From positions 2,608-66,607 of the forward strand of contig JBHIAB010000001.1 of the NCBI GenBank assembly GCA_046758385.1: DNA of 64,000 bases, in the 5' to 3' direction. The first letter of the stretch is position 1. Each line of letters opens with the position of its first letter. This document shows, piece by piece, positions 882 to 9,966 of the stretch. Position numbers and translations under genes: made by a program. The stretch comes from Candidatus Methylomirabilia bacterium (lineage in GTDB: Bacteria; Methylomirabilota; Methylomirabilia; Rokubacteriales; CSP1-6). Below the pieces are notes generated by a model. It did not search any database, had not been told where the DNA came from, and saw nothing but the letters and a program-made list of their open reading frames with translations.

Positions 882-1399
882 GCGCTCCCCCCGACCAGCG
901 CGCGGAGCCCCCAGAGCAGCGCCAGGGTGTAGGCGCCGGCGATGAGATCGTCGAGCATGATACCAAGCCCCCCAGGCAACGACTCGCTCCGGCTGGCTGG
1001 AAACGGCTTCAGGATATCCAGGAGCCTGAAGAGGACGAAGGCCGACAGGAACAGGACGAGCTCACGTGGGAGCGCGATCACGGAGAGAAACATGCCGGCA
1101 ACCTCATCGACCACCACCAGGTTCGGATCCTTCCGGCCGAGCAGCCGCTCGGCGCGGCCCGAGGCCCACCCACCCAAGATGGTCAAGACGAGGAGAGCCA
1201 GAGCAAGCCCGAGTGGCGAGAACGGGACGATCCACAGGATCGCCAGAGCCAGGAGGCTTCCGGCGGTGCCCGGCACGACGGGCACATACCCCACGCCGCC
1301 CGCAGTGGCGATGAAGAGCGCCACCCGGTCTAGTGCCGTTCCAACTATTTGTGACGACTTTCGCGCTGCGCGCAGTCGCGATGGTTGTCGTAAACGCAA
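878..1399 (-). CDS. pgpA: phosphatidylglycerophosphatase A
   Basis: 173 aa; GGVGYVPVVPGTAGSL motif and multi-TM profile typical of PgpA. Confidence 0.7.
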   Translation of the reverse strand: MRLRQPSRLRAARKSSQIVGTALDRVALFIATAGGVGYVPVVPGTAGSLLALAILWIVPFSPLGLALALLVLTILGGWASGRAERLLGRKDPNLVVVDEVAGMFLSVIALPRELVLFLSAFVLFRLLDILKPFPASRSESLPGGLGIMLDDLIAGAYTLALLWGLRALVGGSA

Positions 1400-1434
1400 G
1401 CAGGTAACAGTCGGCCCAACAAGTTGGAACGGCG

Positions 1435-2781
1435 CTAGGAGGCCAATCGCTCAGCTCCGCCCCGAGATTCCGCCACACCGACGAGCTCGTATCCCTCCAC
1501 CTCCACGATCCTGATGCGCGCGAACCTGCCGGGGACCAGGTGCTGATCGCGAAGGTAGACGATCCCGTCTATCTCAGGTGCCTGGCCGGTCGTGCGCCCC
1601 TCCCAGGAAAAGGCCGGATCCTCGCTCGGTCCATCCACCAGCACGGTCTGAACGCTTCCGACGAGTGCCTGCTGCCGCTCCCACAGGATCCGGTCCTGGT
1701 ATTCCTGGACGAGGTGGGCTCGCTCAGCTATCACCTCGGGCGCCACCTGGTCGGCGATCCCGGCGGCAGGCGTCCCTTCTTCCGCGGAGTAGCTGAAGAC
1801 CCCGAGCCGGTCGAAGCGGACCCCCTCGATGAACTCCAGCAGATTCTGAAACGCTTCCTCGCTCTCCCCCGGGAACCCCACCAGCACCGTGGTCCGAAGT
1901 GTGACCCCGACAATGGCTTCGCGAACAGCCTGGACGAGCTCCCGCATGCGCCGAGCCGTGACGCCGCGGCGCATGGCGCTGAGGATCCCATCGTCGGCGT
2001 GCTGGATCGGCATGTCCACGTAGGGGACAAGCCGCGCTTGCCGCCACTTGGCCATGAGCCGATCGTTGATGTGAGCGGGGTGGAGATACATGGGGCGAAT
2101 CCATGCAATCGGTGTGTCCGAGAGCGCCAGCAGCAGATCTCCGATGTCCCCGTTGGCGGGGAGATCCTTGCCATAGGCGAGAGTGTCCTGGGACACCAGG
2201 ATCGCTTCCTGAACTCCTCGCCGCGCCAGCCCCTCCACCTCGTCCACGATGTCCGCCAGCGGGCGGCTCCGATGGCGTCCGCGAAACTGCGGGATCGCGC
2301 AGAACGCGCATTCCATGTCGCACCCTTCGGCAATCTTCACGTAGGCGTACGGGCCCGGCTGGCTGAGAAGACGCGGGGTCTGGGCGTCGTAGAGATAGCC
2401 TGGCGGGGCGTTGGTGGCCCAGTCCTGACGGCCCGCCTCCTGCCGAACCAGATCCACGATCCGCTCGAGCCCGGCGGTGCCCAAGATCCCGTCCACTTCA
2501 GGAATCTCCTCGAGGATCTCTCGCCCGTAGCGTTGCGGGAGGCAGCCGGTCACGATGAGCGAGCGCGCGCGGCCTCGGCCCTTGAGCCGGGCCAGCTCCA
2601 GGATGGTGCCGACCGACTCCTCCCGCGCGCGGTCAATGAAGGCGCAGGTGTTGACGATAAGGCAATCGGCCTCCGTCGCTCGGGCGACGGCGGCGAAGCC
2701 TGCCCGGTTCAGCATTCCGAGCATCAGCTCAGAATCGACTTGGTTCTTGGGACAACCGAGGGTGGTGAGGTGAATCTTCAT
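1435..2781 (-). CDS. rimO: ribosomal protein S12 methylthiotransferase RimO (radical SAM, MTTase N domain + TRAM)
   Basis: 448 aa. N-term KIHLTTLGCPKNQVDSE matches RimO LGCPKNxVDSE. Radical-SAM CxxxCxxC (CAFCAI). C-terminal TRAM-like segment (EGRTTGQAPEIDGIVY). Confidence 0.7.
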   Translation of the reverse strand: MKIHLTTLGCPKNQVDSELMLGMLNRAGFAAVARATEADCLIVNTCAFIDRAREESVGTILELARLKGRGRARSLIVTGCLPQRYGREILEEIPEVDGILGTAGLERIVDLVRQEAGRQDWATNAPPGYLYDAQTPRLLSQPGPYAYVKIAEGCDMECAFCAIPQFRGRHRSRPLADIVDEVEGLARRGVQEAILVSQDTLAYGKDLPANGDIGDLLLALSDTPIAWIRPMYLHPAHINDRLMAKWRQARLVPYVDMPIQHADDGILSAMRRGVTARRMRELVQAVREAIVGVTLRTTVLVGFPGESEEAFQNLLEFIEGVRFDRLGVFSYSAEEGTPAAGIADQVAPEVIAERAHLVQEYQDRILWERQQALVGSVQTVLVDGPSEDPAFSWEGRTTGQAPEIDGIVYLRDQHLVPGRFARIRIVEVEGYELVGVAESRGGAERLAS

Positions 2782-3063
2782 GGCGTCGAACGCCCTCAGC
2801 GGATGAGGACTGCCACGGGCTTCCCCCTGTCAATCACGACGACCCGCTCGCCCTTCCTGATCAGCGCCAGGTAGTGGGTGAGGCGGTTTTTTCAGCTCCC
2901 GAACCCCGATGATACGCATGTGGCCATTATAGCCACATGACCTTTACTATCAAGGCACCCGCTAAACAGGTTAGCCCGGAGTGCTGGTCGACGTTCCACC
3001 GCTCTGGGAGGCAGGCGAGTCTCCTCGGAGGCGTGAGGCGACTGTGCTGTGTCTGATGACTGT

Positions 3064-3828
3064 CTACTGGGCCATGAATCCCCCGTCGACGATCATCTCT
3101 GCTCCGGTCATGAACGACGACTCGTCGGAGGCCAGAAAGAGGGAGGCATACGCGATCTCGCGGGGATGGGCGATGCGGCCCAGGGGAATGGCAGCCTTGA
3201 ACTCCTCCCGGAGCGCTCGGGTGAGGTAGGGGGCCTGCATGGGCGTATCAACGATGCCGGGGTGGATGATGTTCGACCGGATGTTGTCCTTGGCGAACTG
3301 GATCGCGAGTGACTTGTTCAGGGAGATCAACGCGCCCTTGGCGGCGGTGTAGGCGTCCTGAGCCCGGGTGAAGCCGGCCAGGGCCGAGACCGATCCGACG
3401 AGGATGATGGAGCCCCCGCCGGCCTTCTTGAGGTGAGGGATCCCGTACTTGGTCACCCAGAACGCGGACTTCAGGTTGATGCCCATCACCCGGTCCCAGG
3501 CCGCCTCGTCGGTTTCGAGAACTGAGCGGTCGCGGTCTTTCCAGAGCACGCCGGCATTGTTGTAGAGAACATGGAGGGATCGAAAGGCTTGCACGCCTTC
3601 CTCGACCATCCGCTTGACGTCCTCCTCCACTGCCACATCTCCGACCGCGGCCACCGCCTCGCCGCCCGCCCGCTTCACCAGCTCCACGGTCTCATTGGCC
3701 GCGTCCCGGTTGATGTCAGCCACCACCATCCGCGCCCCGTGCTCGGCGAAGAGGAGCGAGGCTTCACGCCCCATTCCCATCCCCGAGCCCGTGATCAGCG
3801 CCACTCTACCCTGAAGCCTTGCCATCAC
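3064..3828 (-). CDS. SDR-family NAD(P)-dependent oxidoreductase
   Basis: 254 aa. TGSGMGMG glycine-rich dinucleotide motif, NNAG, catalytic YxxxK (YTAAK). Confidence 0.75.
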   Translation of the reverse strand: MMARLQGRVALITGSGMGMGREASLLFAEHGARMVVADINRDAANETVELVKRAGGEAVAAVGDVAVEEDVKRMVEEGVQAFRSLHVLYNNAGVLWKDRDRSVLETDEAAWDRVMGINLKSAFWVTKYGIPHLKKAGGGSIILVGSVSALAGFTRAQDAYTAAKGALISLNKSLAIQFAKDNIRSNIIHPGIVDTPMQAPYLTRALREEFKAAIPLGRIAHPREIAYASLFLASDESSFMTGAEMIVDGGFMAQ

Positions 3829-3887
3829 ACCTCTGCGGAGCGACCCGGCGCATCAGTAAGCTCCTTAAATTCGCTCGAAGTTCCGAA

Positions 3888-4217
3888 TCAGCGCTTGTAG
3901 GCGTTCACCGTGGGTGCGTTGAAGTACGCGAACTCGCGTCCCATGGCCACCTGACCCGCGAGCCACTGCTGATGGTGATGGAGCACCCCTGCTGGGCGGA
4001 GCACCCAGCGCGGCGCCTCCTCGATGGGATCTCCCTCCTCGGTGTAGACGTCGCAGAAGACAAGGGCAGTCTTGGGGAGCCAGGGAATCAGGCGGAGCGT
4101 CGAGAGGTCGGGTGAAATCCGCTTGGAACTCGCCGCTCCGAACACACTCCTTGTTGAACGCCCCGAGAGTATGGGCGTGGCTTGAGAACGACAGACCACA
4201 GGATTTTTGGCTGGCAT
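3888..4217 (-). pseudogene. glutamine synthetase remnant (N-terminal beta-grasp domain only, ~109 aa)
   Basis: FGAASSKRISPDLSTLRLIPWLPKTALVFCDVYTEEGDPIEEAPRWVLRPA...GREFAYF matches the GS N-domain pattern (FDGSSI..SDM.L.PD...DPW...lvfCDV...PR.iL; GpEpEFFlF). It ends with NAYKR (cf. GS NSYKRL) then stop. Far too short for a functional GS (~450-470 aa). Confidence 0.4.
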
Positions 4218-4261
4218 GACACAACGAAGTGTACCAGAAGTGCCGCACTTCCAACGAGCCG

Positions 4262-4759
4262 CTAGGTCGAGCGGTAGTTGCCGAACTGGAGCGCGATCCC
4301 CAGGTCCCTCTCCCGAAGCTTGGCAATGACGGCCTGAAGGTCGTCCCGGCTCTTGGCCGTGACGCGCACCTGATCCTGCTGGATCTGAGCCTGCACCCTG
4401 AGCTTCGTATCCTTGATGAGCTTGACGATCTCCCTGGCCTTCTCCCCCGGAATGCCCTGCTGCAGGCCGATCCTCTGGCGGAGGGCCCCGCCAGCCGCGG
4501 CTTCCACTGCTCCGTAGTCCAGGGCCTTGAGCGGGACACCCCGGCGGTGAAGCCGGGACTGGAGGATGTCCACCACGGCCCTGAGCTTCATGTCGTCGTC
4601 GGCCAACACGGTGAGGGCAGTCTTCTCAACCGTGACCTGGCAGCGTGAGCCTTTGAGATCGTAGCGCTGCTGGATTTCCTTGGTGGTCTGGTTGACCGCG
4701 TTGGTCACTTCCTGCATCTCCACCTTGCAGTACACGTCGAAGGAGTTCTCGGCTGCCAC
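4262..4759 (-). CDS. yajQ: YajQ-family cyclic-di-GMP-binding protein (UPF0234)
   Basis: 165 aa. [31 protein letters not shown] matches the YajQ N-terminus. GTG start. Confidence 0.75.
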
Positions 4760-4761
4760 GC

Positions 4762-4908
4762 TTACTTCACACCAAATAACTTCTGATCACGCGAATCAAG
4801 CATGATCTGTTCGATTACGTCCGGCTTCAACGCCTTTCGCTCAATCTTGTTGCGGATCCTATCGCGATACACCTCCAGGATCCTGTCCTCGTCGAACTTG
4901 TTCCTCAT
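4762..4908 (-). CDS. hypothetical small protein (48 aa), first gene of lower-GC island
   Basis: Manual translation [48 protein letters not shown]. No strong RBS. Below ORF-track length cutoff. Confidence 0.2.
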
Positions 4909-5020
4909 CCGCAAAATGGACGCAAGAGTACGCGAAACTGAAACCCGGTACCGCTACGTCCTTTGACCCTTGTACAGACTGAAAAGGTACACCACGTCTT
5001 CGTCTCTGATCGGATCAGCC

Positions 5021-5257
5021 TTAAGGTATCGGTACGAAAAGGGTCCCCTCCTCGTCTGAAGAGTGTCGGTACCGCCAAACGGTCTTTCTTGGACGTATTT
5101 CGGGAGTCGGGATCTGGCCGAGCCAGGCCGTCGCCGAGTGTTCGCTCGGATATCTCTGGACCGACACGCCAAGAACCTTCAACTTTGGACAGGCAGACAT
5201 CCTCCCATATATGAACGCTTTCACGTCCTCCTCGCTCATACTGACGAGTCGACTCAT
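5021..5257 (-). CDS. hypothetical protein (low-GC island)
   Basis: 78-aa ORF immediately downstream of 5262..5483 on the same strand. Competing ORFs on the other strand. No recognisable domain. Confidence 0.2.
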   Translation of the reverse strand: MSRLVSMSEEDVKAFIYGRMSACPKLKVLGVSVQRYPSEHSATAWLGQIPTPEIRPRKTVWRYRHSSDEEGTLFVPIP

Positions 5258-5261
5258 TGCT

Positions 5262-5483
5262 TCACTTCTCTCTCAAGCGCCTTTGGAACAGCCGAATAAG
5301 CTCCTCAGCACGCCGAATGCTTTCCCTAATAATACTCTCGAAGTTCCTAGGATCATACGGGGTCTGGGGGCTTGGTACGGCGTACGGGGAATAGTCAGCT
5401 TCGTCCCTGAGATTGCGTAGCTCTTTCAGCGCATTCCCTGCCCCATGTTCTGCTCGTACTAGCTGGTCTATCTCCCTGGTCAA
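5262..5483 (-). CDS. hypothetical protein (low-GC island)
   Basis: 73-aa ORF, charged/helical (…RRAEELIRLFQRRLREK). No recognisable domain. Confidence 0.25.
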   Translation of the reverse strand: MTREIDQLVRAEHGAGNALKELRNLRDEADYSPYAVPSPQTPYDPRNFESIIRESIRRAEELIRLFQRRLREK

Positions 5484-5597
5484 CGCGCCGTGATTATCCT
5501 GATCCTAGCGCTTGATAGTGGGCTATTTTGAATCACTTGTGCCATAATACTGGCACGGCGCTATATTTAGGAGCCCCGTAGACGCATCACTTTCCAG

Positions 5598-5626
5598 TTG
5601 ACGTGACCTGATGCGTCCTCTACACT
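5598..5626 (+). promoter_or_regulatory. sigma-70-like promoter (TTGACG-17-TACACT) flanked by paired palindromes, upstream of 5652 gene
   Basis: -35 TTGACG 5598-5603, 17-nt spacer, -10 TACACT 5621-5626. RBS AAGGAGG 5635-5641, 10 nt before ATG 5652. Inverted repeats GACGCATCA(5581-5589)/TGATGCGTC(5609-5617) and CGCATCA(5627-5633)/TGATGCG(5642-5648). Confidence 0.4.
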
Positions 5627-5651
5627 CGCATCATAAGGAGGTGATGCGAGC

Positions 5652-6077
5652 ATGGTTAGGGCGACAGAAGGGGAGCGAGAAATCCTGCGCCAAGCCGCTG
5701 AGGGCGCGGCGGCCATCTTGCCCAAGCTAGAGCAGGATCGGGCCGATCTCGATGACCGGATCGCCTCTCTCAGGGCCGCGATAGCGGCTTGGGAGGCTAT
5801 CTCGGGGAAACGACCGAGGAAGTCGCCTACCCCTGCCTCGGCTGAATCAGCTGAAGCGATACCCTCTCATCCGATCAAGCGCGGACAGGTTGCCCAGCAC
5901 ATTGACGCCATCCTAAAAGCGGGTGGTGACTACGACGAACCGGACCTGAGAAAAGCGATCTTTGACAGGTTCAATGTGGTCTATGGGCGCCCCACGATCT
6001 ACTCGGCATTGCGTCGAGGCCGCAAGATCGGGAGATATGAACAAAAAGAGAAGCGCTGGAGGATGAAGGTTGCGTGA
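5652..6077 (+). CDS. hypothetical protein (141 aa), island-borne
   Basis: Strong RBS and promoter upstream. N-terminal coiled-coil-like segment; C-terminal basic region. No recognisable domain. Confidence 0.5.
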   Translation: MVRATEGEREILRQAAEGAAAILPKLEQDRADLDDRIASLRAAIAAWEAISGKRPRKSPTPASAESAEAIPSHPIKRGQVAQHIDAILKAGGDYDEPDLRKAIFDRFNVVYGRPTIYSALRRGRKIGRYEQKEKRWRMKVA

Positions 6078-6120
6078 ACAACAAGAGGCCGTGATCGGCT
6101 TTTCCAGATCACGGCCCCCG

Positions 6121-6207
6121 TGCCCCCGTAGCTCAGCAGCAGGCTCAGCCATAGAGCACCCGCCTACTGAGCGGAAGGTCGCGCGTTCGAGGCCCGCCGG
6201 GGGCACC
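6121..6207 (+). tRNA. tRNA-like element (probable pseudo-tRNA on a tRNA-Arg(ACG)-like scaffold; anticodon loop CUACUGA = ACU; aberrant 19-nt D-loop; encoded CCA)
   Basis: Acceptor stem GCCCCCG/CGGGGGC, discriminator A + CCA. T-arm GCGCG-TTCGAGG-CCCGC. AGGTC variable loop. Anticodon stem CCCGC/GCGGA. The D-loop carries a ~10-12 nt internal duplication (GCTCAGCAG|GCTCAGCC). Confidence 0.4.
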
Positions 6208-6354
6208 AATTTCAACGGGGTATCCGGTGCGTCAACACCGAACACCCCCAACCCCGACACACCCCGCAGAGAGGAGTCGGGATTGGGGCCGCTAAGCCTC
6301 ACTTTTTTATCACTCTTGCGTGGGTGCTTGTCAAGGGTAAAGGCAAGGCCCACC

Positions 6355-7167
6355 ATGAACGTCCTGAACCCCGAAAGGAAGCTGGCTATTCTCTCCGCAT
6401 TGGTAGAAGGCAACTCCATGCGCTCTATTTCCCGCATGACCGGTGTCCACAAAACAACCATCTTGCGCTTGCTCAAGGAAGTGGGCGATAACTGTGTCAG
6501 GATTCTCGATGAGCGGATGCGCAGCCTGACCTGCCGCGTCATCGAGGGTGACGAGGTCTGGAGTTTCGTCAAAAAGAAGCAGCGGCGGCTGACCGCCGAG
6601 GAAAAGCTGAATCCCGAGTTTGGCGACCAGTACGCCTATATCGCCTTGGACCCGGACACGAAGCTCGTCCCGGTGTTCGTCGTCGGCAAGCGGGACGGTG
6701 CGACCACGTTCCGCTTCGTCCAGCAGCTTCGGCATCGGCTCGCCAATCGCATTCAGATAAGTACCGACGCCTTCCGCCCCTATGTGGAGGCCGTGGAGAG
6801 CGCCTTTGGGGCGGACATCGAATACGCGCAGTTGACCAAGGTCTACGAGGCCGAGAACCCAGGCCCTGGGTGCTATAGTCCGCCCAAAGTCACTGGCGTC
6901 CAGGTTACAGAGATCGCCGGCCGACCGGAGCCGAAGAAGACCTGCACGTCCTACGTCGAGCGGAACAACCTCACCATCCGCATGCAGCTTCGGCGCTTCA
7001 CGCGACTGACCAATGGGTTTAGCAAGAAGCTGGAGAACCTGAAGGCAGCTCTCGCTATTCACTTCGCTCATTACAACTTCTGCCGGATTCACGGCTCGCT
7101 CCGCGTGACCCCGGCGATGCCGCCAGGAGTCACGGACCGCATCTGGAAGTTGGAGGAACTGCTATGA
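6355..7167 (+). CDS. IS1-family transposase, single fused ORF (InsA-like HTH + InsB-like catalytic domain)
   Basis: 270 aa. HTH [23 protein letters not shown] resembles IS1 InsA. Catalytic part aligns to E. coli IS1 InsB blocks ([13 protein letters not shown] ~ DEQWGYVGAKSRQRW; YAYIALD...[11 protein letters not shown] ~ [48 protein letters not shown] ~ [33 protein letters not shown] ~ GHYLNIKHY). Terminal inverted repeats not located. Confidence 0.7.
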   Translation: [270 protein letters not shown]

Positions 7168-8228
7168 GGGCGCAGAAGGAGCGCAAGCTTGACGGCACTC
7201 CCAAGCTGGGCGAGAAACTCCGTATCGGCGGCACGATTGTTCATTTTGGTCGTGCTGAGCGCTTGTATCCGCACTGGCCGATCCCGACCTGTATCATTGT
7301 CGATGGACCATACGGGATCAGCGGATTCCCCGGTGACCCGCCCAGTCATCGGGACTTGCCCGACTGGTATGCCCCTCATGTCGCCGCGTGGTCACGGTAC
7401 TCCATGCCACAAACGACCTTATGGTTCTGGGGCACGGAAATCGGCTGGGCGGTTGTTCATCCGCTGCTAGATCGACATGGCTGGGAATATCGCTCGTGCC
7501 ATATCTGGGACAAAGGACTGACCCACATCGCCGGGAACGCCAACTCCCTCACGCTTCGTAAGTTCCCCGTCGTGACCGAAGTCTGCGTCCAATACGTCAA
7601 GGCGGCCCGCTTCTCCGTGAACGGTCGACAGCTGTCAATGCAAGAGTGGCTTCGATACGAATGGGAAAGATCCGGCTTGCCATTGACGCTCACTAATAAA
7701 GCGTGTGGAGTCTTAAACGCGGCGACCCGGAAATACTTCACCAAGTGCCACCTTTGGTACTATCCCCCCGTCGATGCGTTTGTTCGCTTCGTTAAATACG
7801 CCAACAAGCATGGCCGGCCTGAAGGGCGCCCCTACTTCAGCGTGGATGGGACGCGGCCCCTATCGGGCGAAGAATGGGCGAAGATGCGCGCAAAGTTTCA
7901 CTGCGAGGTCGGCGTCAACAATATCTGGCGCGAATCACCTGTCCGTGGCGAAGAGCGGATTAATGGATTCAGGTCGAGCATGCAGTGGAAGTATGCGAGT
8001 CTCCACGGGAGCCAAAAGCCGTTGCGCCTGATCGAGTTAATCGTGCGGGCCAGCACCGATCCCGGAGACGCAGTGTGGGACCCGTTCGGCGGCCTTTGTA
8101 CGACGGCCGTTGCTTGTCTCAGAGCGGGCCGCCGTTGCTTCAGCGCCGAGATCGTTCCCGAGTTCTACCTCGCCGCCAAAGAAAGGGTGGCCGCGTATGG
8201 CAAGGCCGTCAAAACCAGGACGCGTTGA
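7164..8228 (+). CDS. DNA methyltransferase, beta-class N6-adenine/N4-cytosine (PF01555-type; motif IV before motif I)
   Basis: 354 aa. Motif IV variant IIVDGPYG near the N-terminus. Motif I region ELIVRASTDPGDAVWDPFGGLCTTAVACLRAGRRCFSAEI near the C-terminus. Start overlaps transposase stop (ctATGAgg). Confidence 0.7.
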   Translation: MRAQKERKLDGTPKLGEKLRIGGTIVHFGRAERLYPHWPIPTCIIVDGPYGISGFPGDPPSHRDLPDWYAPHVAAWSRYSMPQTTLWFWGTEIGWAVVHPLLDRHGWEYRSCHIWDKGLTHIAGNANSLTLRKFPVVTEVCVQYVKAARFSVNGRQLSMQEWLRYEWERSGLPLTLTNKACGVLNAATRKYFTKCHLWYYPPVDAFVRFVKYANKHGRPEGRPYFSVDGTRPLSGEEWAKMRAKFHCEVGVNNIWRESPVRGEERINGFRSSMQWKYASLHGSQKPLRLIELIVRASTDPGDAVWDPFGGLCTTAVACLRAGRRCFSAEIVPEFYLAAKERVAAYGKAVKTRTR

Positions 8229-8976
8229 GCCGACCAAGTGGGAACATTATGAGTTATGGAGGCGGGTAATCGAAGCCATCCATGCGCTGCCACTTCATTT
8301 CAAGTCAGCGACCGTCATAGAAGGGATGCTCGTCACGGACATATTCACCCTGAACGCTGCACTTGGAGCAACAATAGAAGAGCAGGTCGTGGCCACCCTC
8401 AATGCCCTGCGTCCAGTATGGGATCCGGACAAGAAACTTCAGACTTTTGGCTTCGTGAGGCAAACGCAGACGTTCCCTGATGTGCTGCTTAGAAGAAAGA
8501 CTGACGGGCAATAGATTCTGATGGGGATCGAACTTAAGGGCTGGTATATGCTCGCGAAGGAAGGCGAACCGAGCTTCAGATTCACGGTTAACGCGAACGC
8601 ATGCAATCCCTGGGATTTGATCGTCGTCGTTCCGTGGGTTCTCTCAAATGTTTTGTCCGGCTCGCCCGTCGTCCATCCGGTATTCATTGACCTTACCCGG
8701 TATACTGCTGAGCAGCGGAACTATTATTGGCAATACGAGCGCGAAGCTAAGGGCGACCTCGGCGTAATCCTTGCGGAAGGTGCCACCACCTATCCCGTCA
8801 AGAGCGACAAGATTTCCGACAAGGCCAAGCATGATCCGAGCAGCAACTTTGGCCGACTGGCTCGGTACGGCATCATGGAAGCGTTCGTCAAAGCCACGAT
8901 GAATACGCCTGTTCGAGGCTTGCCAGCCCATCAATGGTTGGCATTTTTCAAGCGCGGGATCAAAGAACCCGATTGA
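8197..8976 (+). pseudogene. PD-(D/E)xK restriction-endonuclease-like gene interrupted by an in-frame TAG (8512-8514); fragments 8197..8514 and 8521..8976
   Basis: Both ORFs are in the same frame. Upstream fragment ends ...QTFPDVLLRRKTDGQ*. Downstream fragment begins (IL)MGIELKGWYM..., so the stop falls exactly between the PD and ExK catalytic elements (PD-x15-ELK). The gene sits directly downstream of the MTase. Confidence 0.5.
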
Positions 8977-9001
8977 AAATAGCCCAGTACCTAGCGCTTT
9001 A

Positions 9002-9295
9002 TCATAAAGACTGTCGCCCGCGCGGCGTGGTAAGCTCCATAGTATGCACGGGATACGGCGCCGCGCCGCGCCGCACCAACGGGTCCTTGCTCTTAGCGAG
9101 GACTCTCGCGGCTTTGATGAAACCCGTGGCCAGGGCGAATCTGTCCCTGACTATGCTGGTAACTGCGCGCTCTAACCACCTTGCATCCAACGTCTCCACA
9201 TCCGTCAGCGAACGCAGCAGGGCACACTGGGACGACGAGAGTTTCTCGAGCAGCTTCTTGGAAGCGTCCGCCGGCATGCCGCGGCCGATTGTCAC
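9002..9295 (-). CDS. hypothetical protein (97 aa), lower-GC, overlaps lolA stop
   Basis: ORF only; no recognisable domain. 4-bp overlap with lolA suggests co-transcription. Confidence 0.3.
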   Translation of the reverse strand: MTIGRGMPADASKKLLEKLSSSQCALLRSLTDVETLDARWLERAVTSIVRDRFALATGFIKAARVLAKSKDPLVRRGAAPYPVHTMELTTPRGRQSL

Positions 9296-9966
9296 CGACC
9301 CGGATCGAGGGGGACCACGGCCACACCTGGCGGCGGTGTGAAGACGAAGAGCTCATCACCCAGTGTCGGGTTGACCCCGATCTCGGTGAACTGCATGGTC
9401 ACGGTGTTGTCGAACTGGTCGTAGAGCACGGCCTTCCGCACCAGGTACTGCTCTCGGTCCACGGAGAGGATGAGGCGCGTGAGCACCGCGGTGGGCACCT
9501 TCGGCCTCAGGTCGATCAGCGGGTTCCCCGCCTGGTCCACCTTGAGCGGGTTCAAGAAGCGGACCGTGAACTCCTCCCGGACGCGCCCCAGTCCCGCCAG
9601 GAAACTTCCCGCGGGACCCGCGAGGGCCCGCGGCGCATCGCCTACGTTCACCTGATTCAGCTCCGGCGTGTACACCCAGATCGAGGTCCCGTCGGAGACA
9701 ATCTGCTGAGGCGAGGGAGTCTGGTACTCCCACCGCATCCTCCCCGGCTTCTTCAAATAGACGACCCCCTCGGCCTCGATGGTCTGCCCGAAGCTCTTGT
9801 TGAAGGCACTCTGGACGAACTCGGCGCGAAGGGTAGTGATCCGCGCATAGGTCGACTCGAGCCTGGCCACCACCCCATCGAGCGTGAGCGCCGAGGCGAG
9901 GCTGGGGAAAAAGATCAGGACGAGACCAATGACAGCTCGGCCAAGAGGTGCACTGGCTCTCCTCAT
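9292..9966 (-). CDS. lolA: outer-membrane lipoprotein carrier protein LolA
   Basis: 224 aa. Signal peptide, then LolA-like core (KKPGRMRWEYQTPSPQQIVSDGTSIWVYTPELNQV). Confidence 0.7.
   Translation of the reverse strand: MRRASAPLGRAVIGLVLIFFPSLASALTLDGVVARLESTYARITTLRAEFVQSAFNKSFGQTIEAEGVVYLKKPGRMRWEYQTPSPQQIVSDGTSIWVYTPELNQVNVGDAPRALAGPAGSFLAGLGRVREEFTVRFLNPLKVDQAGNPLIDLRPKVPTAVLTRLILSVDREQYLVRKAVLYDQFDNTVTMQFTEIGVNPTLGDELFVFTPPPGVAVVPLDPGR

Follow-up and report, generated by a model that had tools for sequence, protein, structure and literature searches.

The window analyzed here, a single stretch of 64,000 nucleotides, contains an open reading frame (ORF) for an IS1-like transposase whose last nucleotides are also the first nucleotides of a DNA methyltransferase gene. 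This arrangement raises the question of whether the methyltransferase, together with the restriction endonuclease gene downstream of it, travels with the mobile element as a passenger or represents host DNA beside which an insertion sequence (IS) came to lie.

The transposase gene (6355 to 7167, + strand) is a single ORF of 270 codons. Its product has an N-terminal helix-turn-helix (HTH), matched at residues 10 to 42, and the catalytic residues D66, D138, and E202 of a DDE transposase, which are invariant among 15 homologs. The start codon at 6355 is assigned on the basis of more than 8,000 homologs of ~270 residues that align from residue 1 and of a start context, ATGAA, that is invariant. 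Against the NCBIfam model transpos_IS1, the protein scores 74.9 bits (E value, 7.8e-21; curated cutoff, 100), with residues 4 to 149 aligned to model positions 40 to 169 and the N-terminal zinc finger part of the model unmatched, and against Pfam DDE_Tnp_IS1 it scores 25.4 bits over 34 residues only (cutoff, 24.1). Close homologs are named "IS1 family transposase" by both NCBI and JGI. The Pfam models for IS1595 transposases and zinc ribbons gave no match at an E value of 0.01 or better, and the IS6 family was rejected, the NCBIfam IS6 model reaching only 25.8 bits against a cutoff of 125. Judged from the protein sequence, the family placement is IS1-family-like, that is, IS1 or a sister family. 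The preliminary description of this DNA had seen a peculiarity of this copy in the fused single ORF that lacks the InsA zinc finger; the arrangement is present, but it is the norm among the more than 8,000 proteins. What does set the window copy apart is C173 and P257, at positions where nearly all other homologs have R and A (R173C and A257P).

The type II DNA methyltransferase of the N6/N4 class encoded by the next gene (7164 to 8228, + strand; 354 residues) matches PF01555 with 71.4 bits (cutoff, 26.7) and PADLOC MTase_II. It carries both the catalytic and the AdoMet-binding motifs expected of such an enzyme, DGPY near the N terminus and FGG near the C terminus, and the corresponding residues (D47, G48, P49, Y50, F308, G309, and G310) are invariant among 5,874 homologs. 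No start other than the ATG at 7164 would work, since the next one in frame lies inside the conserved domain. Positions 7160 to 7169 read GCTATGAGGG, so that, as had been described, the TGA stop of the transposase and the ATG of the methyltransferase overlap as ATGA. The coupling junction as a whole (7152 to 7167, + strand; GGAGGAACTGCTATGA) consists of a Shine-Dalgarno sequence, GGAGG, at 7152 to 7156, a 7-nt spacer, and the ATG. A CTATGA junction is common to the related loci L001, L002, L003, and L083 in other genomes, and the ATG of the junction is used by three different, unrelated methyltransferase genes among the relatives. This geometry suggests that synthesis of the methyltransferase depends on ribosomes that complete the transposase, or at any rate on a shared mRNA; the good Shine-Dalgarno sequence could also allow independent initiation. 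The earlier proposal that the insertion supplied the start of the methyltransferase is thus true in part, in that the last codons of the transposase gene provide both the Shine-Dalgarno sequence and the ATG.

The methyltransferase gene is overlapped by 32 nt by a gene for a type II restriction endonuclease of the PD-(D/E)xK class (8197 to 8976, + strand; PADLOC REase_II, E value of 2e-6), which is interrupted by an in-frame TAG at 8512 to 8514. When joined across this codon, the translation covers 96 to 100% of homologs of 255 to 283 residues. P94, D95, E112, and K114 are invariant, and the TAG falls between D95 and E112 at a site occupied by E, D, or Q in the homologs. The same TAG is seen in an independent Logan assembly. 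A type II restriction-modification (R-M) system calls for an intact endonuclease gene adjacent to the methyltransferase gene, and the gene found here is broken; the methyltransferase should therefore be a functional orphan at this locus, unless the TAG is read through. The closest homologs of the methyltransferase-endonuclease pair (81% and 66% identity) stand by themselves as operons, with neither a transposase nor an end motif in their vicinity, which indicates that the pair was captured by the element.

The boundaries of the element were located with a consensus for the ends, GGTAGTGGGCTATTTTG, built from other loci without the window copy. This consensus has two matches in the 64-kb window, where 0.02 would be expected by chance, and the two are in inverted orientation. 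The left terminal inverted repeat (IRL; 5514 to 5534, + strand) reads GATAGTGGGCTATTTTGAATC and differs from the consensus at one position; the right one (IRR; 8971 to 8991, - strand) reads GGTACTGGGCTATTTTCAATC as its reverse complement, and the two are identical at 18 of 21 positions. Directly outside each repeat lies the same octamer, TAGCGCTT, at 5506 to 5513 on the left and at 8992 to 8999 on the right, as expected of a target site duplication of the 8 to 9 bp typical of IS1. The tips are likewise of the IS1 type GGnnnTG, with the family consensus GGTAGTG represented in the window copy by GATAGTG on the left and GGTACTG on the right. The mobile unit thus delimited (5514 to 8991; 3,478 bp) has a GC content of 57.7%, against 64 to 66% (~65%) in its flanks, and comprises a winged-helix gene, a structured leader of ~270 nt, the transposase gene, the methyltransferase gene, and the interrupted PD-ExK endonuclease gene. 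Terminal inverted repeats thus exist, contrary to the preliminary description, which had identified none by eye; the search that it proposed, across 6208 to 9300, takes in the right repeat and misses the left one. No second copy of the element was found in the 64-kb window. Nor was an empty site found: the only other assemblies of the locus, located through its LolA neighbor, carry the element, and exact-protein lookups with the transposase and with the DUF520 neighbor returned no match. Had positions 5514 to 8991 never been inserted, the junction would be expected to read CTGATCCTAGCGCTTTATCATAAAG.

We conclude, with a probability of about 85%, that positions 5514 to 8991 constitute one transposable unit, an IS1-family-like IS enlarged by passengers (a tIS, or small unit transposon). 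IRL and IRR enclose one transposase gene together with the winged-helix, methyltransferase, and endonuclease genes. The suggested status of the R-M genes as passengers of the IS is borne out by the position of both genes between the transposase gene and IRR, by the match of IRR to IRL and to the family consensus, and by the 8-bp duplication that flanks the whole unit.

Relatives in other genomes have the same organization. Nine of them (L001, L088, L004, L005, L007, L085, L130, L139, and L089, the last being Mesorhizobium loti plasmid CP050295) have ends that match the consensus, with cargo inside, and are flanked by duplications of 8 bp, or of 9 bp in L130. Their cargo is variable and often consists of R-M genes, which belong to differing families in the window, in L001 to L003, in L083, and in L085; at least four different R-M systems occur on the same backbone across the relatives examined. 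Among close relatives, the ends are perfect and the 8-bp duplications fresh, and one genome contains identical copies, which argues for recent transposition. The juxtaposition with the methyltransferase had been said to be coincidental should other copies end right after the transposase stop. Relatives with ~54% identity in the transposase do so, their right end lying 9 nt past the stop codon, but all those with at least 59% identity and readable ends carry cargo within the repeats. Two further candidates for ends were discarded: one for the right end of L083, at 6947, shows just 7 nt of the repeat and lacks a matching duplication, and a stretch of 38 nt past the ATGA that is common to L001, L003, and L083 resembles the right repeat too weakly to be its degenerate ancestral form.

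The element has two slots for variable genes, one downstream of the transposase gene, occupied here by the captured methyltransferase-endonuclease pair, and one upstream of the leader. The latter holds a gene (5652 to 6077, + strand) for a 141-residue protein with a long N-terminal helix, a linker, and a predicted C-terminal winged-helix DNA-binding domain. The protein has no match in Pfam, NCBIfam, or PADLOC; proteins 55 to 61% identical are encoded at the equivalent position in L083 and L085, and the family is small (85 cluster representatives among 1.84 billion). Its AlphaFold2 model (pLDDT, 90.3) has a helix at residues 6 to 51, helices at 79 to 125, and a beta hairpin, and the C-terminal domain gave weak Foldseek matches to the winged helices of PadR, MecI, Fur, and Z-alpha proteins (best E value, 1e-2). 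Upstream of this first gene lies a promoter-like site (5598 to 5626, + strand; TTGACG, a 17-nt spacer, and TACACT; 9 of 12 positions), and a terminator-like hairpin with a T-run (8921 to 8953, + strand) lies just inside the right end; both are weak matches from a consensus scan only. The genes of the element all read in one direction and may be expressed as an operon, in which the last codons of the transposase gene would supply the Shine-Dalgarno sequence and ATG for the methyltransferase and the endonuclease gene overlaps that of the methyltransferase by 32 nt. The benefit would likely be mutual, as the transposon would lend the R-M genes mobility and an active R-M pair would penalize loss of the element.

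Between the winged-helix gene and the transposase gene lies the structured leader. It begins with a palindromic hairpin, HP1 (6087 to 6116, + strand; GGCCGTGATC, a 10-nt loop, and GATCACGGCC), whose arms are conserved in sequence in seven of nine relatives and whose loop varies. There follows a tRNA-like element (6122 to 6208, + strand) with a body resembling tRNA-Arg(ACG), ACU at the anticodon position, an encoded CCA, and a 16-nt insertion in the D-loop. The remainder (6209 to 6354, + strand) contains a second hairpin, HP2 (6217 to 6248), a two-tier helix, and the ribosome-binding region of the transposase gene. The leader is conserved over its full length, HP1 through ATG, in all relatives with at least 59% transposase identity for which upstream sequence is available (nhmmer E values, 2e-80 to 4e-15). 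Its helices 6 to 8 each have three or four pairs with double changes, and G-U pairs assign the RNA to the + strand. Overall, 88.3% of cells are paired, versus 37 to 50% in slid controls, and 30 pairs have double changes, versus 11 to 18. A candidate sigma-70 promoter inside the leader (TTGAGG, a 17-nt spacer, and a TATAAC-like hexamer) was rejected, as the stretch forms these covarying + strand helices with G-U pairs. Rfam contains no family matching the leader beyond tRNA, a search of plasmid DNA with the leader returned ordinary tRNA genes only, and a metagenome scan with the leader motif gave mostly chance matches, the real ones being L130/L197, L139/L179, L142, and L188 only.

The tRNA-like element of the window scores 41.7 bits against the Rfam tRNA model (RF00005; gathering score, 29) and is missed by ARAGORN at default settings; the intact copies of L001 and L083 reach 65.7 and 67.6 bits. 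Its acceptor, anticodon, and T stems are kept among the relatives through compensatory changes and are 94 to 99% paired. The window copy does not look like a functional decoder, given its D-loop insertion and the mispaired positions of its anticodon and T stems. The type of module depends on the subclade, being Arg-like, class II Tyr/Ser-like, or mini-tmRNA-like, the last retaining the acceptor and T arms only. Its distance to the start codon of the transposase gene is fixed within each subclade. No module was detected in the largest Acidobacteriaceae clade or in the alphaproteobacterial plasmids. Two functions were considered and dropped. Codon supplementation finds no support in the codon counts of the element. 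A role of the leader or its anticodon loop as a guide RNA is unlikely, since by eye only a 4-nt match to ends or targets was seen and ten target duplications have no common consensus.

Could the R-M genes nevertheless be host genes? A short IS of about 6085 to 7167 could have landed upstream of a resident R-M operon and replaced the start of its methyltransferase, as might be read from the nucleotide homology between the window and L001, which spans only 6085 to 7167 and ends at the transposase stop codon, and from the relatives of ~54% identity that end shortly past that codon. This account is already disfavored, and we regard it as very unlikely: the end consensus is matched only at 5514 and 8991, next to the duplicated octamer, with no match at 6085 or just past 7167; the GC content of the R-M genes is as low as that of the element; and in three other elements the ATGA belongs to a different methyltransferase gene, which, wherever the two ends can be read, lies within the element's own repeats. 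Less probable still is a genomic island integrated at a tRNA gene by a site-specific recombinase, the tRNA-like sequence being the attachment tRNA of the host. The tRNA-like gene does lie within the low-GC segment, and R-M islands at tRNA genes are well documented, for example in PMC2853133. However, the segment has no integrase, and its boundaries are inverted repeats with an 8-bp duplication rather than the directly repeated 3' end of a tRNA gene. The tRNA-like element lies inside the unit and, across unrelated genomes and phyla, accompanies the transposase gene at a fixed distance of 173 to 179 nt; to our knowledge, the anticodon ACU is not standard in bacterial decoding. It is likewise very unlikely that the transposase homolog has been domesticated and now serves, instead of as a transposase, as an HTH regulator of the coupled R-M genes akin to a controller protein. 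Conservation of the methyltransferase coupling in a sublineage would fit, as would the two substitutions at near-invariant positions and the degraded ends of the window copy, but the catalytic triad is invariant across the family and close relatives bear the marks of recent movement.

The role of the leader within this passenger-carrying element is less certain. The tRNA-like element may be a decaying passenger, a host tRNA gene acquired with upstream cargo and functionless in the element; we consider this somewhat unlikely, though a serious alternative. It would account for the variation of the module by subclade, its apparent absence from some clades, the D-loop insertions in the window copy and L084, and a codon usage that gives the element no need for a tRNA. 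Against it stand the many compensatory changes that keep the stems across transposases 59 to 88% identical, the fixed distance to the start codon, and the mini-tmRNA-like versions, whose retention of just the acceptor and T arms suggests selection for shape. A further reading, to which we give less than even odds, is a joint one in which the leader and its tRNA-shaped RNA are a functional part of an undescribed, widespread IS1-like branch, whose backbone also serves as a socket for cassettes. On this reading, different lineages would have installed a tRNA-Arg-like, class II tRNA-like, or mini-tmRNA-like module at one place, and the Shine-Dalgarno sequence and ATG in the transposase stop would be an expression socket for varied methyltransferase or R-M cassettes. 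Our best guess for the tRNA-shaped RNA is a processing signal, cut by RNase P and 3' tRNA nucleases, that would split the transposase message from upstream transcripts. The window copy itself looks to be in decay, with a nonsense codon in the endonuclease gene, damage to the ends and the tRNA-like fold, two substitutions in the transposase, and the methyltransferase intact; it is probably no longer mobile.

Members of the IS1 family have GGnnnTG ends, duplications of 8 to 9 bp, two ORFs (insA and insB') fused by a -1 frameshift, and lengths of 740 to 1,180 bp (PMC10425158, Table 8). The window element shares with them an HTH-DDE transposase similar to the IS1 models, the type of ends, and the length of the duplication, and in its simple relatives no more than 9 nt separate the transposase gene from the right end. 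It differs in having one continuous ORF of 270 codons that requires no -1 frameshift and lacks the InsA zinc finger, in a length of 3,478 bp, which is due to passenger genes flanking the transposase gene on either side, in its structured leader with a tRNA-like fold, and in an NCBIfam IS1 score that falls short of the curated cutoff. The IS1 family of ISfinder includes a single-ORF subgroup, and the window element fits only a subgroup of this kind that carries passengers. The IS1595 family, a relative of IS1, likewise encodes its transposase in one ORF, generates 8-bp duplications, and often carries passengers; the window transposase has no match to the IS1595 models, and the end sequences differ. 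Siguier et al. in 2009 reportedly placed that family at the "frontier between IS and transposons."

Insertion sequences with passenger genes are termed tIS in ISfinder usage (PMC7986276). As in those elements, one pair of repeats here encloses only one transposase gene along with genes unrelated to transposition, and the duplications indicate that the whole moves together; unlike them, the passenger is an R-M pair that appears to be joined translationally to the transposase, and the family has two cargo slots and an RNA module. Transposon-like R-M units with inverted repeats and 8-bp duplications were described by Furuta et al. in 2010 (PMC2853133). These likewise hold type II R-M genes inside the repeats; as the units are presented there, no transposase is listed among their contents and the repeats are unique to the unit, whereas the window element has its own transposase and the ends of a widespread family.

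The module of the leader keeps the cloverleaf, T-loop, and CCA of tRNA-Arg(ACG) and of the tRNA-like domain of tmRNA. The L001 copy is identical to a host tRNA-Arg(ACG) at 55 of 78 positions, with an anticodon loop one base off (CTACTAA versus CTACGAA), and the versions from Marinacidobacterales match both ends of the tmRNA model and have G3-U70. The module departs from these RNAs in placing an ACU, GCU, or CGU anticodon on an Arg-like body, in tolerating D-loop insertions, and in lying always inside the element, upstream of the transposase gene; it is tRNA-like by sequence and fold alone. The literature searched contained no description of a tRNA-like element in IS1-type elements and no entry for ISMhu11. 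A passenger-carrying IS is thus an already known kind of element, and the tRNA-shaped leader supported by covariation is the part for which no description was found.

This element offers a concrete, sequence-defined example of how R-M genes travel, as passengers in a small DDE transposon to whose transposase they appear to be translationally joined. In annotation, such elements are easily broken up by mistake, yielding an "IS1 transposase," a solitary pseudo-tRNA, and an R-M operon with no relation to either. The backbone may recurrently serve as a vehicle for defense genes in bacteria of soils and sediments, Methylomirabilota and Acidobacteriota among them. If the leader is functional, for example as an RNase P "punctuation" signal or as a tRNA mimic controlling expression of the transposase or transposition, the biology of a classical family of DDE insertion sequences would come to include an RNA element.

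A repeat search of the window returned 28-nt inverted repeats at 5507-5534 and 8971-8998. The end sequence common to transposase relatives from other genomes, GGTAGTGGGCTAKTTTG, was derived independently of that search, and with up to 3 mismatches allowed it matches the window exactly twice, at 5514-5530 (forward strand) and 8975-8991 (reverse strand), where 0.02 matches are expected by chance. The two arms, GATAGTGGGCTATTTTGAATC and GGTACTGGGCTATTTTCAATC, are identical at 18 of 21 positions, and the octamer TAGCGCTT adjoins both ends (5506-5513 and 8992-8999). The element so delimited, 5514-8991, is 3478 bp long with a GC content of 57.7%, and its flanks have 64-66%. The preliminary description, made by eye, had recognized no inverted repeats; this did not hold, and the pair found here encloses far more than the 6355-8228 considered there. 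A stretch of still lower GC content (52.7%, 4761-5513), with small ORFs that gave no Pfam match, adjoins the left side of the element, between a DUF520 (YajQ-like) gene and the left repeat, and may be older foreign DNA that was the target of the transposon insertion.

The transposase gene (6355-7167, forward strand) is an ORF of 270 aa. Its product scores 74.9 bits (E value of 7.8e-21) against NCBIfam transpos_IS1, whose curated cut-off is 100, and 25.4 bits against Pfam DDE_Tnp_IS1, whose cut-off is 24.1. Residues 4-149 align to positions 40-169 of the NCBIfam model; the first 39 model positions, which we take to be the InsA zinc finger, are without a counterpart, the N-terminus has no CxxC pairs, and helix-turn-helix matches cover residues 10-42. 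The view that an InsA-like helix-turn-helix and an InsB-like catalytic domain are joined here with neither zinc finger nor frameshift was thus right. None of 15 homologues differs at D66, D138, or E202. A protein search gave at least 8000 homologues at an E value of 0.001 or better, and among the matches listed nearly all are 270-280 aa long and aligned from residue 1. Several sources label homologues "IS1 family transposase," and one entry, from a Candidatus Methylomirabilia metagenome-assembled genome (MAG), is 100% identical. Judged by these entries, the single-ORF form without a zinc finger is not peculiar to the window copy. The tips of the element are of the GGnnnTG type and the target duplication is 8 bp, both among the features tabulated for the IS1 family (PMC10425158, Table 8). 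With respect to the IS1 family proper, the ends, the duplication length, and the HMM similarity therefore speak for membership, whereas the NCBIfam cut-off, the two-ORF organization, and the size do not support it.

Three further genes lie within the repeats. The first (5652-6077) encodes a 141-aa protein with no match to a known family in Pfam, NCBIfam, or PADLOC. Its AlphaFold2 model (pLDDT of 90.3) predicts a long helix and a C-terminal winged-helix DNA-binding domain, for which structure matches are weak (best Foldseek E value of 1e-2); homologues with 55-61% identity occupy the equivalent position in two relatives and form a small family. The second (7164-8228, forward strand) encodes a 354-aa protein (PF01555, 71.4 bits; PADLOC MTase_II) that is predicted to be a type II N6/N4 DNA methyltransferase. 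As had been described, the transposase stop and the methyltransferase start share an ATGA (7164-7167); the ATG at 7164 is the sole workable start, and a GGAGG at 7152-7156, 7 nt 5' of it, lies within the final transposase codons. The third (8197-8976; PADLOC REase_II) overlaps the methyltransferase gene by 32 nt. Its translation has full-length alignments to about 2500 proteins, which among the matches listed are 236-327 aa long (mostly 255-283 aa), and P94, D95, E112, and K114, invariant in the homologues, constitute a PD-(D/E)xK nuclease motif. Codon 106, between the PD and ExK halves, is an in-frame TAG (8512-8514); the corresponding residue in homologues is E, D, or Q. An independent Logan assembly of the locus (L202) also reads TAG here, which argues against a MAG-specific assembly error, with the reservation that the two read sets may share one study.

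The methyltransferase-endonuclease pair has its closest homologues (81% and 66% identity) in free-standing operons that show the same gene overlap and have no transposase or convincing end motif nearby, which indicates that the pair was captured by the transposon. Together with the position of these genes inside the repeats and duplication and with the existence of whole-unit relatives, this supports the suggestion that the insertion sequence carries restriction-modification genes as passengers.

Relatives from several phyla could be delimited by the same end consensus and flanking duplications of 8 bp (9 bp in L130): L001 (3596 bp), L004 (2977 bp), L005 (2749 bp), L007 (3309 bp), L085 (3915 bp), L088 (2770 bp), L130 (4112 bp), L139 (2343 bp), and L089, on a Mesorhizobium loti plasmid (3370 bp). 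The unit moves as a whole, and its cargo varies between relatives. Each of these elements has variable genes 5' of the leader, the structured stretch that precedes the transposase gene, and most have a further set on the 3' side of the transposase gene, before the right repeat; the exception is L130, in which almost nothing separates the transposase gene from the right repeat. Restriction-modification genes are a recurrent part of the cargo: where the window carries an N6/N4 methyltransferase and a PD-ExK endonuclease, L001-L003 carry a 231-240-aa type II methyltransferase (L001 also a short ORF read as an endonuclease remnant), L083 an N6/N4 methyltransferase and a BglII-like endonuclease, and L085 a C5 methyltransferase and an HNH nuclease, these in the upstream slot on the opposite strand. 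In further elements, the cargo encodes an HNH protein, a P63C-domain protein, or membrane proteins. Marinacidobacterales relatives (about 54% identity) terminate 9 nt past the transposase stop, at ...CACTACC, suggesting that the ancestral state was probably a simple insertion sequence.

Other observations concern individual relatives. In L005 (3809-4564), L084 (2533-3135), and L088 (2091-2810), the downstream slot holds, on the opposite strand, genes for 200-250-aa proteins with N-terminal membrane segments apparent by eye (the L088 protein has no Pfam match), which may be a recurrent cargo type. A second right-end motif (CACTACC) in L084, at 564-578, 8 bp left of the element's left repeat, suggests two family members back to back, so that a clean 8-bp duplication is missing there. 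The L089 element (1296-4665 on plasmid CP050295 of the cultured strain M. loti 582) has perfect 22-bp ends and an 8-bp duplication (CGCTGGTG) and contains a histone-H1-like gene, an HTH gene, and a hypothetical gene, with no tRNA-like element detected; it is a possible experimental model.

The ATGA junction is a trait of the sub-lineage whose transposase ends in ...ELL* (GAA CTG CTA TGA), comprising the window, L001/L002, L003, and L083. In every member the methyltransferase ORF begins on the junction ATG, with three different methyltransferase genes overall; in L083 the gene caller picked a later TTG, and the junction ATG is in frame with no stop between. About 38 nt after the ATG are common to L001 (5810-5850), L003 (820-860), and L083 (5078-5118), encoding the peptide MxRRxxEQLxLYG (13 codons), even though the L083 methyltransferase belongs to a different family. 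In these three, the methyltransferase ORF thus begins with about 38 nt that precede the cargo junction. The window diverges from them right at the stop codon, and its nucleotide homology to L001 ends at 7167. Since the junction is conserved with different methyltransferases, any methyltransferase that fills the slot receives its Shine-Dalgarno sequence and start codon from the backbone. The proposal that the insertion supplied the methyltransferase start therefore stands in part: ribosome binding site and ATG come from the backbone, but the methyltransferase is itself cargo inside the repeats.

Some 270 nt between the stop of the upstream gene and the transposase ATG are common to relatives with at least 59% transposase identity (nhmmer, E values of 2e-80 to 4e-15). 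This leader (window 6085-6354, forward strand; L001 4735-5006, L083 4002-4271, L084 1417-1711, L085 3821-4097, L088 787-1057, and L004 2724-3006) consists of a palindromic hairpin (GGCCGTGAYC, 8-10 nt, GRTCACGGCC), a tRNA-like cloverleaf, a second GC-rich hairpin, and a two-tier helix. Across nine sequences, 88.3% of cells are paired, against 37-50% with slid partners, and 30 pairs have changes on both sides, against 11-18 in slid controls; values this high did not occur in any of 500 shuffles. Pairing in the four tRNA helices is 94-99%, and G-U pairs assign the RNA to the forward strand. Covariation in this alignment thus lends the predicted structure strong support. The tRNA part scores 41.7 bits against the Rfam tRNA model in the window, 65.7 in L001, and 67.6 in L083, and the rest of the leader has no Rfam match. 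In the literature searched, no account of this feature was found.

In other subclades the tRNA-shaped module is of a different kind and lies at a fixed distance from the transposase start that is specific to each. The W clade module lies 173-179 nt upstream of the start codon. In Marinacidobacterales, a 74-nt module about 40-63 nt upstream (L022 2887-2960, L027 2891-2964, and L061 2892-2965) matches both ends of the tmRNA model (E values of 5e-13 and 5e-10, below the gathering score), has G3-U70 and ACCA, and resembles a mini tRNA-like domain of tmRNA. Bryobacterales/Terriglobia have class II Tyr/Ser-like modules (L057 2651-2739, L059 2658-2746, and L066 403-498; about 280 nt upstream in Bryobacterales) with a long variable arm and anticodon UAU or GUA; in L057/L058, two copies in one genome, the module lies within a 100% identical segment. 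In neither the largest Acidobacteriaceae clade nor the alphaproteobacterial plasmid relatives did we detect such a module.

The tRNA-like body of the leader resembles tRNA-Arg(ACG): the L001 copy is identical to a host tRNA-Arg gene at 55 of 78 positions, with an anticodon loop of CTACTAA against CTACGAA. The main rival explanation is a captured tRNA in decay, against which the compensatory changes in the stems argue. The anticodon is ACU in six of nine sequences, CGU in two, and GCU in one, and we saw in the codon usage of the element no reason for a decoding role. What all module types conserve is the acceptor arm, the T arm, and, mostly, CCA, features recognized by RNase P and tRNA 3' nucleases. 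We therefore prefer, as a guess, that the module may serve in transcript processing 5' of the transposase gene.

The window copy itself is degenerate in several respects. In the left tip, position 2 is A instead of G, the right arm shows two departures from the consensus, and the tRNA-like fold contains 16 nt inserted in the D-loop as well as mismatched pairs in the anticodon and T stems. Residues 173 and 257 of the transposase (codons at 6871-6873 and 7123-7125) are C and P instead of the R and A of nearly all aligned homologues, which would fit relaxed selection; the methyltransferase keeps every invariant residue. The simplest reading of the sequence is that the element is an old insertion, probably immobile, with an inactivated endonuclease and the methyltransferase as a surviving orphan.

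Insertion sequences with passenger genes are a recognized class, tIS (PMC7986276), and restriction-modification units that resemble transposons, bounded by inverted repeats and 8-bp duplications, are likewise on record (PMC2853133). The window element belongs to both kinds. Beyond them, it has a resident single-ORF transposase of the IS1-like type, a translational junction that different methyltransferase genes have reused, two slots for cargo, and a conserved tRNA-shaped leader. Its interest rests mostly on the RNA module and on its apparent role as a vehicle for restriction-modification genes.
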